64,000 bases of DNA from Calditrichota bacterium (GTDB taxonomy: Bacteria > Electryoneota > AABM5-125-24 > Hatepunaeales > Hatepunaeaceae). Made by a program: the position numbers and the translations under genes. The notes under the pieces were generated by a model. It searched no databases, was not told where the DNA came from, and worked only from the letters and a program-made list of their open reading frames with translations. The DNA lies in NCBI GenBank assembly GCA_016867835.1, contig VGIQ01000001.1:10094-74093 (forward strand), written 5' to 3'. Below, one piece after another: positions 57,796 through 62,023 of this stretch; within the stretch, counting starts at the first letter, position 1; the number at the start of each line of letters is the position of its first letter.

Positions 57796-58755
57796 ATGCC
57801 GCGCGTTCGTCGGGTCGAACCGCGTCCTTCCCGACCCCCCCGGTCTCGCAAAGGCCGGTTCACCTACTTCCTCTTTCTTATCCTGATTGCCCTTCTGGCG
57901 CTCGATTGGCAGTTTCGCCTGACCGAACGTATCATTGGGCGGCATCTGGTGCGGCACAACGACGAGCGCGAGCCGTGGGGAACGCTCTGGACGATGGAGG
58001 AGAAAGCGCGCACTGCATCGCGTCGAATGGAGGAAGAGTCGGCTCAACTCGGCCTCTTGCGCGAACGGGCTGACCGTGCCGGGTCGTTCGGCGAGATTGC
58101 AGAACTGCTCGGCGACGGTGAAACCGTCGTCCTGTCGCCTTCCCGCTTCGTAAGCCTCTATTTGGCGCTGCCGGAGATGCTCCGGCCGGATTTGATCCCG
58201 CCCAAAGACCTCCTGGCGCATTACTATACCAGTGACTGGCGGCGCACGCTCCTGACCCGCCCGGGCGGGCTGGTAGCGGGCTGCCGCGCAGTGCTGCTCG
58301 ACGCTCACGACCAGCCGCTCCTGACACTTCACCTTGAGCCGCGATTTCTCTTCACTTCAGCAAAAGCCCGCACTTTGGCGACCGGCGGACTGGCGGCCGA
58401 TCCGGCATTCGCCGGTCGCATCTACCCCGGCGAGAAATTCATCCAGTATCTCTTCATTCTGCCCGAAGCCGACCGCAACAACCTTTTCCCGGACCCCGAG
58501 ATGCTCCTGTCGCTTCCCAAGCCGCTGCGCTATGTCGGATTGGCGCCCGAGCGAGGAGATGGGTTTGCGGTCATCGGATTCGAAGCCGCTGGCGAGGCGG
58601 GTCCGGTCGTCGCAACGCACCCGATCTCACCCCGCACCTTCGAACGGCTCGCATTTGCATTGACCTGGGAGGGCAGCGATACGCTCTTTGCGCCCTCGTC
58701 CGACGGCGGTGAAGCCTACCCTGTCGAGCCTGACGAATCCGAGGTCGGGGAGTAG
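57796..58755 (+). CDS. hypothetical membrane-anchored protein
   Basis: N-terminal TM (FTYFLFLILIALLALDW). 319 aa. No motif recognised. Confidence 0.45.
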   Translation: MPRVRRVEPRPSRPPRSRKGRFTYFLFLILIALLALDWQFRLTERIIGRHLVRHNDEREPWGTLWTMEEKARTASRRMEEESAQLGLLRERADRAGSFGEIAELLGDGETVVLSPSRFVSLYLALPEMLRPDLIPPKDLLAHYYTSDWRRTLLTRPGGLVAGCRAVLLDAHDQPLLTLHLEPRFLFTSAKARTLATGGLAADPAFAGRIYPGEKFIQYLFILPEADRNNLFPDPEMLLSLPKPLRYVGLAPERGDGFAVIGFEAAGEAGPVVATHPISPRTFERLAFALTWEGSDTLFAPSSDGGEAYPVEPDESEVGE

Positions 58756-58757
58756 CG

Positions 58758-60728
58758 ATGCGGCGGCTGCTCATAGTGGTCAACCTGCTGATACTGATCG
58801 TCATAGCGGGCGGTGTCGCAGCCTACTATCGACTGGCGCCCGGCATTCCGCGGTTGCCGGACGACCTGCGGCTTTTGGCTTCCACCCCTGCGACGGAAGT
58901 CTATAGCCGGGGCGGAGAACTGCTGGGCCGACTGGGTGGACGCCATTATATCGCCCTCGACCGAATATCGCCGCACTTCCTGAACGCTGTCGTTGCCGCC
59001 GAAGACCGGCGGTTCTTCGAGCATCGGGGCATCGACCGAATTGCGACGGTGCGGGCGCTGTGGCAGAATCTGCGGCAGCGCGGCGACGCCCCGGGCGGTT
59101 CGTCTATCACCCAGCAACTTGCCAAGAACCTCTTCTTCTCCTTCAAGCGGTCCTGGGAGCGCAAGGCGCTCGAAGCGCTCACCGCCTTCGCCATTGAGGC
59201 GCGATTCTCTAAGGAGGAGATCCTTGAAGCCTACTGCAATCTGGTCTATTTCGGGCGGTTTGCTTACGGCGTCGAACGGGCATCGCGCACCTATTTCAAC
59301 AAGCATGCCCGGCAGTTGGAACTGCACGAAGCGGCGCTGTTGGCCGGTCTCCCAAATGCCCCGGCGCGGCTCGATCCGTTCAGCAACCCGGATCAGGCGC
59401 GCGAGCGGCAGCGGCTCATCCTTGAGCGAATGGCCCGTGCCGGCTATATTGAGTGGCGACAGATCGACAGTCTGACTGCCCGGCCGGTGACGCTCTCAAA
59501 TGCCGCTCCGCCGCCGGAGAGGGGTTCGTTTGCCGTAGATGCCGCACTCGAAGGGGCTCGCGGCAGGTTGAGTGGCGACCTCGTCAATTACGGCGGGGTG
59601 AAGATTTACACCACCATTGACCCACGTCTGCAGCGGATTGCCGAGCGCAAGGTCGCAGCCGGCGTCGATCTCCTCGAGCGCAGCATTCGTCCTCCTAAGG
59701 TGGGTGAAGACCCCTCCGGCCGGCTCGAAGGCGGTCTCGTCGCCGTTGAAGTGAAGAGCGGCCAAATCGTCGCTCTGGTCGGCGGCCGCAACTACCTCGA
59801 CAGCCCCTATAACCGCGCCACCCGGTCGCGCCGCCAGCCCGGTTCAGCCTTCAAGCCGGTGATCTACCTAACCGCTCTTGAGCAGGGCAACATTACGCCG
59901 GCATCAGTCTATCGCGATGAACCGGTTGCGCTCAAGATCGACTCGCGACGCACCTGGAGGCCGACCAATTTCGATAAGCGCTTCACCGGCCCGGTGGTGC
60001 TGAAACTTGCGCTGATGAAGTCGATCAACACCGTTGCCGCGCAGTTGATAAGTGAGACCGGCCCCGATAAGGTGATCGCCACCGCCCGCCGACTCGGCAT
60101 TGAGTCGCCGCTCGAGCCGCATCTGTCGCTGGCACTCGGCTCGACCGGGCTCACCATGGTCGAAATGGCGACCGCGATTGCGACCATCGCTCGGGAGGGC
60201 TACTTCATCGAGTCGCGCCTCCTGTCGCGAATAGAGGGCCCCGGCGGCGAGACCCTGGCGTCGCTTGCATCTGCCGGTGAGCAGCGTTTCGACCCGGAGA
60301 CGACTTATATGCTTATCGATATGCTGTCCGGCGTCCTCGATAGCGGCACCGGGACAATTGTGAGGCGGCGCGGATTCAGCGGGACGGCGTTCGGCAAAAC
60401 CGGAACCTCGAGCGACTACCGGGATAGTTGGTTCGTCGGAGCCAGTCCGCATCTGGCTGTGGTCGCCTGGGTAGGCTACGACGACAACCGCAAGATGTAT
60501 CTGAAGAACGGCGTCGGCGTTACCGGCGCTTCGGGGGCAGCGCCAATCTGGGCCGACTTTATGATCGCCGCGACGGAAGGCGATCCGCCGCGCGAGTTTC
60601 AGGTGCCCGACGGTGTCGAACGTTCTTTCGTAGAACCTGTTACCGGGCGCGTCAGTCGCAACTATCTGGACGGGTATCTGCCGGTAATGCTCAAATCGGA
60701 GTCTAAATCGGGGTGGTTTGGGTTTTGA
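58758..60728 (+). CDS. class A penicillin-binding protein (GT51 transglycosylase + transpeptidase)
   Basis: VVAAEDRRFFEHRGID is the GT51 motif. SAFKP (SxxK), SIN, KTGTS. Confidence 0.85.
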   Translation: MRRLLIVVNLLILIVIAGGVAAYYRLAPGIPRLPDDLRLLASTPATEVYSRGGELLGRLGGRHYIALDRISPHFLNAVVAAEDRRFFEHRGIDRIATVRALWQNLRQRGDAPGGSSITQQLAKNLFFSFKRSWERKALEALTAFAIEARFSKEEILEAYCNLVYFGRFAYGVERASRTYFNKHARQLELHEAALLAGLPNAPARLDPFSNPDQARERQRLILERMARAGYIEWRQIDSLTARPVTLSNAAPPPERGSFAVDAALEGARGRLSGDLVNYGGVKIYTTIDPRLQRIAERKVAAGVDLLERSIRPPKVGEDPSGRLEGGLVAVEVKSGQIVALVGGRNYLDSPYNRATRSRRQPGSAFKPVIYLTALEQGNITPASVYRDEPVALKIDSRRTWRPTNFDKRFTGPVVLKLALMKSINTVAAQLISETGPDKVIATARRLGIESPLEPHLSLALGSTGLTMVEMATAIATIAREGYFIESRLLSRIEGPGGETLASLASAGEQRFDPETTYMLIDMLSGVLDSGTGTIVRRRGFSGTAFGKTGTSSDYRDSWFVGASPHLAVVAWVGYDDNRKMYLKNGVGVTGASGAAPIWADFMIAATEGDPPREFQVPDGVERSFVEPVTGRVSRNYLDGYLPVMLKSESKSGWFGF

Positions 60729-61822
60729 AGGGAAGGCGATTAAGTGCCGTGGGTCGGGCGATGATTCTGATCCTGCTGACCGCGAGCGTTTCGCTTGCTG
60801 CCGGACCTCCCTATATCTGCGCAGTCTGCGGCAAAGAGATCACCCGTCAAGCCGGCGTCGTCGATGGCAAACTCTACCATCCCGAGTGCTTCCGCTGCAC
60901 CACCTGCGGCGAAGCCATCCAGGGCGACTACTTCCGCGACAATGACGGGAAGTATCACCACAAGGGCTGTTTTGAAGCCCGCAACCGGCCGGTATGCGCC
61001 TGGTGCGGGCGCGTAATACTCGACCGCAAATACACCGGCTACCGGGGAAAGTCCTACCACAACGACTGCTTCAAGCGACGGGTGGCGCCGATTTGCGACA
61101 TCTGCGGCGAAGCCCTCACCGACTCCTCCATCACCGACTTCTGGGGCACCCAGTTTCATTCCCGACACGCCGGGGAATTCCCTATTTGCACGGTCTGCGG
61201 ACGGCTTATCGCTCGCGACGGACGGATTATCGCCAGGGGGCGGCATCTCTGCCCGATCTGCCTCGAAACGGCGGTCACCGATCCGGCCGCTGCCCGGGCG
61301 CTGCTTGAGGAAGTGCGCGAACAACTTGCCTCAATAGGGATCGTAGTGACGACGCTCGGTCTCCGGATCGAACTGGTAACCGGCGAATGGCTTGCCGCAA
61401 GCCGCAGCAGCGACGTCGTCGGGCCGCATCCTTACGCCGCGACGCGCTGGCAGGCCGGCAATCCCCGCGACGGCGACGAAACAGCAGTCATCTATGTCCA
61501 AACCAGCCTGCCCGAAGATCTAACGCGCGGCATCATTGCCCACGAGATGATGCATGTCTGGCAGCATGAACACCGTGCCGACAACCTCCCGTCAGACTTG
61601 CGCGAAGGCAGCGCCAACTGGGCTTCATCGCTGATCTACAATCGCTCCGGCACCGGTCGCGGGCGATTCTTTATCAACAACTTCGAGAAGTCGCCTGACC
61701 CGGTCTATGGCGAAGGCTATCGCAAGATCGGCAGGTATGCCGACAGCCGCGGCGTCGAAGGGGTGCTCGATCTGCTGCGCATCGAGAGCGCACTGGCAGG
61801 ATCGGGGCGAGGACGGAGATAG
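60713..61822 (+). CDS. LIM-like tandem zinc-finger protein with C-terminal DA1-like HEMMH zinc-peptidase motif
   Basis: Repeated CxxCG...H..CFxCxxCG units followed by AHEMMHVWQHEH. A signal-like MILILLTASVSLAAG suggests a start near 60761. Confidence 0.5.
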   Translation: MVWVLKGRRLSAVGRAMILILLTASVSLAAGPPYICAVCGKEITRQAGVVDGKLYHPECFRCTTCGEAIQGDYFRDNDGKYHHKGCFEARNRPVCAWCGRVILDRKYTGYRGKSYHNDCFKRRVAPICDICGEALTDSSITDFWGTQFHSRHAGEFPICTVCGRLIARDGRIIARGRHLCPICLETAVTDPAAARALLEEVREQLASIGIVVTTLGLRIELVTGEWLAASRSSDVVGPHPYAATRWQAGNPRDGDETAVIYVQTSLPEDLTRGIIAHEMMHVWQHEHRADNLPSDLREGSANWASSLIYNRSGTGRGRFFINNFEKSPDPVYGEGYRKIGRYADSRGVEGVLDLLRIESALAGSGRGRR

Positions 61823-61962
61823 CAATCAAGTATCAAGTGTCAAGTGTCAAGTGATCGAGAGTCCTGTTGTCAGTGATCGGGGTTGGAGGTTAAAAGACCT
61901 ACCGGCAAAAAAGTCCTCCCTCGGCTCCTTCCTTAATCCAGTAATTTCCACTACTTAAGCCT

Positions 61963-61977
61963 TACGTCCCGCTGGCA
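61963..61977 (+). promoter_or_regulatory. sigma-54 promoter TGGCAC-N5-TTGC upstream of flgB
   Basis: cTGGCACggcggTTGCTt, 47 nt upstream of the flgB start. Followed by a hairpin (ttgctttg...caaagcaa). Confidence 0.55.
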
Positions 61978-62023
61978 CGGCGGTTGCTTTGTTTCGCTGC
62001 GAAGGAAAAGCAAAGCCTGACCG

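Follow-up and report, generated by a model that had tools for sequence, protein, structure and literature searches.

We analysed a 64,000-nucleotide (nt) stretch of contig VGIQ01000001.1 from a Calditrichota bacterium, hereafter the window, and followed up one open reading frame (ORF) that a sequence-only reading had described as an apparently secreted, LIM-like tandem zinc-finger protein ending in a DA1-like peptidase motif. The ORF lies between a penicillin-binding protein (PBP) gene and the flagellar gene flgB, and its product combines a predicted N-terminal export signal, five Cys/His zinc modules (Zn1 to Zn5) and a C-terminal DA1-like peptidase domain. Its features are as follows:

60713..61822, + strand: whole ORF of the LIM-DA1-like peptidase, 369 amino acids (aa) from GTG 60713, with alternative starts at TTG 60725, GTG 60749 and ATG 60761
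60713..60799, + strand: predicted Sec signal peptide, residues 1-29, with K6, R8, R9 and R15 in the n-region, MILILLTASVSL as the hydrophobic (h-) region and S-L-A before the likely cleavage site
60818..60970, + strand: Zn1 and Zn2, a canonical LIM domain, residues 36-86 (best Pfam stretch 36-88; matched by LIM structures in the PDB; ligands invariant among Calditrichota-type sequences)
60995..61069, + strand: Zn3, an extra single zinc finger, residues 95-119 (C95/C98/H116/C119)
61094..61261, + strand: Zn4 and Zn5, the LIM-like domain, residues 128-183, adjoining the peptidase and corresponding to the plant "LIM-like" domain
61268..61801, + strand: DA1-like (MEROPS M102) gluzincin peptidase domain, residues ~186-363, from Pfam, structural model, fold comparison and profile alignment
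61541..61555, + strand: HEMMH zinc-binding and catalytic motif, H277, E278 and H281 (H, E and H invariant)
61604..61606, + strand: E298, predicted third zinc ligand (HExxH-x16-EG) on helix 294-312, from the invariance of E298 and G299, the secondary structure of the model and the plant motif
61706..61723, + strand: YGEGYR motif (Y332, G333, G335 and R337 invariant)

The analyses establish the domain composition of the protein, its conserved catalytic and zinc ligands and its predicted folds. In Pfam, the LIM (PF00412; E 2.4e-18, 66.5 bits against a cut-off of 22.9) and DA1-like (PF12315; 34.8 bits against a curated cut-off of 25) models both score far above chance; a search of NCBIfam gave no significant match. 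The sequence-only reading had counted at least four tandem LIM-like units, and five modules are in fact found between the N-terminal segment and the peptidase domain. Residues 36-86, with ligands C36/C39/H56/C59 (Zn1) and C62/C65/H83/C86 (Zn2), fit the LIM pattern CX2CX16-23HX2CX2CX2CX16-21[CH]X2[CHD] exactly, and the LIM-like domain pairs a CxxC..HxxH module (Zn4; C128/C131/H149/H152) with a CxxC..CxxC module (Zn5; C159/C162/C180/C183). In an alignment of 36 sequences, six of them plant proteins, the LIM-like cysteines C128, C131, C159, C162, C180 and C183 show no variation from bacteria to plants, and the same holds for H277, E278, H281, E298, G299, Y332, G333, G335 and R337. The HEMMH motif (residues 277-281) sits within AHEMMHVWQHEH (residues 276-287); the corresponding motif is HELxH in all 83 locus homologues (82 HELMH, one HELTH), so that the HExxH signature, whose lack of conservation would have spoken against a peptidase, is invariant. 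Y332 may stabilise the transition state.

Structure prediction, proposed earlier as a check, also agrees with this architecture. The AlphaFold2 model (predicted local distance difference test, pLDDT, 89.8; predicted template modelling score, pTM, 0.77; low confidence only at residues 1-30, with pLDDT <55) contains predicted LIM folds and a thermolysin-like gluzincin core, in which helix 268-286 carries HEMMH and the helix after it carries E298, the arrangement of HExxH and Glu ligand on consecutive helices that is typical of gluzincins. Foldseek comparison with the PDB retrieved tandem LIM structures (PINCH LIM4-5, LMO2/4:LDB1 and Lhx3:Isl1). No DA1-family structure was among these matches, and a literature search for DA1 structures likewise yielded nothing relevant; since none turned up in the PDB, apparently no structure of the family has been solved. 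Membership in the M1, M4, M30 or MATCAP families was considered and rejected on the basis of 9-16% identity and the absence of a GxMEN motif and of M1 flanking domains.

The proposed resemblance to plant DA1 is borne out over nearly the whole protein. Plant DA1 and DAR proteins were matched by phmmer at E values of 1e-14 to 6e-5, covering 57-90% of the query (mostly 80-90%), with the best match at ~1e-14 over 88%. When an alignment of Calditrichota-type sequences was compared with a plants-only alignment by hhalign, the two matched with 99.9% probability (E 1.5e-32, 293 columns; query 33-360 against plant 129-490 of 492), and the aligned region runs from the first LIM finger through to the C-terminus of plant DA1. 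At the level of sequence profiles, this comparison shows the whole LIM, LIM-like and peptidase module to be homologous to that of plant DA1. DA1 is listed in MEROPS as family M102 (PMC8643629). The motif of the plant enzymes is HEMMHX15EE; they depend on HEMMH to cut BB, DA2, UBP15 and TCP15/22 at specific sites, and on the LIM-like domain for activation, which mutation of this domain abolishes (PMC5322733). When plant DA1 was compared by BLAST with bacterial members of the family, no bacterial lineage was clearly closest among the top-ranked hits (about 83-100 bits), and we therefore claim no donor lineage. A literature search on a horizontal-transfer origin of DA1 found nothing relevant.

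The signal-like N-terminus noted earlier is present and is shared with most relatives. In the window protein, a hydrophobic stretch after K6, R8, R9 and R15 ends in SLAA. Among 84 distinct homologues from reference genomes, a heuristic detected an N-terminal hydrophobic region (median 15 residues) in 79, with K/R before it in 78 of the 79 and small residues in the -3/-1 arrangement in 65 of them; the first CxxC follows at a median of 7 residues past this region. A less biased sample of 139 cluster representatives contains 82 signal-like proteins and about 29 that begin directly at the first finger, with no N-terminal extension, so the family appears to comprise exported and cytoplasmic branches; judging from its N-terminus, we would place the window protein in the exported branch. 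Which start codon is used, between 60713 and 60761, is ambiguous. GTG 60713 overlaps the stop codon of the PBP gene by 16 nt and retains a K/R-rich n-region, which nearly all homologues keep. NCBI already holds the identical protein under a correct name, "protein DA1 [Calditrichota bacterium]", in a model of 353 aa that begins at ATG 60761. In our heuristic judgement, an upstream start (60713-60749) that retains the charged n-region would suit the family better than the ATG of NCBI.

Taken together, the gene probably encodes a native Calditrichota DA1-like (PF12315, M102) LIM-peptidase that acts as a Sec-exported zinc endopeptidase, with its LIM array binding or gating substrates and with no ubiquitin switch. 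The N-terminal signal peptide would take the protein across the inner membrane, and the mature protein would hold six zinc ions, five structural and one catalytic, acting as a site-specific, zinc-dependent endopeptidase on envelope or extracellular proteins. By analogy with eukaryotic tandem LIMs, the zinc-finger rod might bind extended substrate peptides and/or hold the peptidase latent; this idea draws on plant DA1, in which mutation of the LIM-like domain has the effect described above. Activation would have to differ from the ubiquitylation switch of plants, since both the ubiquitin-interaction motifs (UIMs) and a ubiquitin system are absent.

Several observations weigh against this picture. 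The signal-peptide calls come from our own heuristic rather than SignalP, and the start at M17 chosen by NCBI drops the charged n-region. The roughly 29 of 139 representatives without an extension suggest that the module also works in the cytoplasm, and Cys-rich zinc-finger arrays are unexpected in an oxidising periplasm. The PF12315 model aligns with residues 258-299 only (positions 80-121 of 213). Because plant DA1 stays latent until it is ubiquitylated, its bacterial counterpart may depend on some other activator. Finally, clustering of all flanking ORFs revealed no family-wide partner gene that would point to a substrate. In that clustering, a 24-locus flanking cluster was rejected as a partner because it is an antisense shadow of the LIM-DA1 gene itself, and receiver-domain, HflX-like and PAS-like neighbours were rejected as lineage-specific.

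The earlier suggestion that a bacterial version is unusual does not survive a wider survey. With two peptide patterns alone, 172 of the 185,579 genomes that represent species yielded relatives, which are hence present in at least 172 species. Most of these belong to the Fibrobacteres-Chlorobi-Bacteroidetes (FCB) group, mainly Calditrichota, Zixibacteria, Ignavibacteria/Melioribacteraceae and Marinimicrobia; relatives also occur in Sericytochromatia and a few other groups. An exhaustive, family-wide profile search gave about 1,562 clusters (50% identity) at E<=1e-30, of which the best-scoring 150 are mostly 300-430 aa long, the bacterial size class. DA1-like genes without a signal peptide also occur on two contigs binned as "Hadarchaeota archaeon" (L060, 810-1766; L076, 6001-6945), which represent either true archaeal members or mis-binned contigs. 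The prior record points the same way. Burroughs, Iyer and Aravind reportedly noted in a 2011 abstract that prokaryotic LIM domains are linked to membrane-associated peptidases. An alignment of DA1 with bacterial homologues from Roseiflexus was given by Dong et al. (2017; PMC5322733), who cited Burroughs et al. (2011). Zhao et al. (2014) had termed the family plant-specific after a survey of 249 bacterial genomes, and this label for DA1 persists in parts of the plant literature (PMC4007552), despite the many bacterial DA1-like clusters; the claim is outdated. Our literature search found no experimental work on bacterial DA1-like or M102 members. The window gene, which also bears an NCBI name, is thus an ordinary member of a large, catalogued bacterial branch of DA1.

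Directly upstream on the same strand lies a gene that might be co-transcribed with the LIM-DA1 gene:

58758..60728, + strand: class A PBP (PBP1A) with transglycosylase and transpeptidase domains, from Pfam

It is preceded immediately by a 319-aa ORF (57796-58755, + strand) without a Pfam match, which is conserved at 32-54% identity in four of the five other Calditrichota genomes that share this gene order; the contig of the fifth (L015) stops inside PBP1A. Elsewhere, in Ignavibacteria/Melioribacteraceae (L058, L061, L078 and L085), ORFs of 408-681 aa belonging to one family lie directly upstream of the DA1-like gene on the same strand and end 53-73 nt before it, a lineage-specific synteny. Downstream of the window gene are flgB, flgC and fliE. 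A perfect sigma-54 promoter consensus (TGGCACGGCGGTTGCT, 61973-61988, + strand) precedes the flgB ATG (62024) by 36 nt; the 64 kb contain no other match, against 0.04 expected by chance, and the flagellar genes therefore have their own promoter. The heptamer TCAAGTG is repeated four times in tandem at 61826-61853, from 4 nt after the stop codon and ~120-150 nt upstream of the sigma-54 promoter; these copies could be sites for an enhancer-binding protein.

Four other explanations were weighed. That the protein is cytoplasmic like plant DA1, its hydrophobic N-terminus either remaining uncleaved as an anchor, with most of the protein on the inner side, or arising only from the choice of start codon, would fit the NCBI model, the relatives without an N-terminal extension and the Cyanobacteria, Sericytochromatia and "Hadarchaeota" metagenome-assembled genome members that have no h-region, and zinc fingers are typical of reducing compartments. 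However, the hydrophobic stretch remains even from M17, an h-region of 15 residues is too short to span a membrane, and the K/R residues that precede it in 78 of 79 homologues, with acidic or polar residues after it, indicate an N-in orientation, so that we regard a cytoplasmic location as unlikely. A narrower form of the exported-peptidase interpretation ties the enzyme to the upstream PBP1A, for instance as a processor or regulator of that protein or of its partners. Five other Calditrichota genomes share the same-strand order of unknown ORF, PBP1A and LIM-DA1 but differ in what lies downstream, both proteins are predicted to be extracytoplasmic, and the genes overlap in the window if the GTG start is taken and are only 12 nt apart in L006. 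The remaining four linked loci (L008, L011, L014 and L015) have gaps of 60-190 nt, though, similarly divergent Calditrichota orthologues (L001, L007 and L012) lie elsewhere, and PBP1A occurs within 6 kb in none of about 70 loci from other phyla. The linkage is limited to one Calditrichota subclade, where synteny can be simple inheritance; it is a weak lead, and a functional tie to PBP1A seems distinctly unlikely.

Two further explanations are much less probable. The sequence-only reading had noted the adjacency to flagellar genes, and the position is real, with flgB starting 200 nt after the ORF on the same strand; a role in the flagellar system is nevertheless exceedingly improbable, because FlgB, FlgC and FliE are found near none of the 87 other fetched loci and flgB has its own sigma-54 promoter, which makes the adjacency incidental. 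It is also highly improbable that the protein is a pseudo-peptidase or a zinc-finger scaffold without catalytic activity, or that the gene came from plants, whether by contamination or by recent transfer. LIM domains do occur mostly in eukaryotes, and DAR3 and the integrated domain of DAR4/CHS3 are described as an inhibitor and a decoy. Against a scaffold stand the invariant catalytic residues. A plant origin is contradicted by the base composition and GC content of the gene, which agree with the flanks, by bacterial neighbours on both sides, by the spread of the family over at least 172 bacterial species and by an identity to plants of only 22-25%.

A bolder extension of the exported-peptidase interpretation would make the five-finger array the first LIM system outside the cytoplasm, a periplasmic rail gating a latent DA1-type protease on envelope proteins (possibly the PBP1A machinery), and would at the same time make bacterial LIM-peptidases the stock for land-plant DA1, contrary to the plant-specific label; we consider this combination doubtful. 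At ~350 aa and without UIMs, a bacterial LIM-peptidase of this kind would offer a minimal model for control of this protease by the LIM-like domain, and would be a good target for a first experimental M102 structure. Its predicted export also raises a biochemical question, namely the stability of Cys/His zinc fingers in the envelope.

Comparison with known systems places the protein as follows. The DA1-like LIM-peptidases of Roseiflexus come from Chloroflexota, whereas the window protein comes from Calditrichota. M1 aminopeptidases (ERAP1 and LTA4H), thermolysin (M4), M30 and MATCAP have gluzincin cores with the low identity given above, and, unlike the M1 enzymes, the window protein lacks the GxMEN exopeptidase motif and the flanking M1 domains. 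Eukaryotic tandem-LIM proteins (PINCH, LMO2/LMO4, Lhx3, paxillin and CRP1), whose arrays bind extended partner peptides, resemble it in the double zinc-finger fold and the head-to-tail order, but the window protein comes from a bacterium, has a predicted export signal and joins its LIM array to a protease, and its Zn2/Zn3 and Zn3/Zn4 linkers are 8 residues long compared with 2 in the eukaryotic proteins. Plant DA1 proper has the "Group 4 LIM" modular structure with two N-terminal UIMs (Zhao 2014). The Arabidopsis DA1/DAR proteins (M102, PF12315) share with the window protein the order of LIM, LIM-like (CxxC/H pairs) and C-terminal peptidase domains as well as the HEMMH...EG and YGxGxR motifs. 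Plant DA1 is longer (~500 aa), has one zinc finger fewer in the LIM region and carries two long inserts in the peptidase domain (one Ser-rich) that the window protein lacks. Positions 1-128 of the plant profile, which include both UIMs, have no counterpart in the bacterial protein, in which a 30-residue signal-like segment takes the place of the UIMs.
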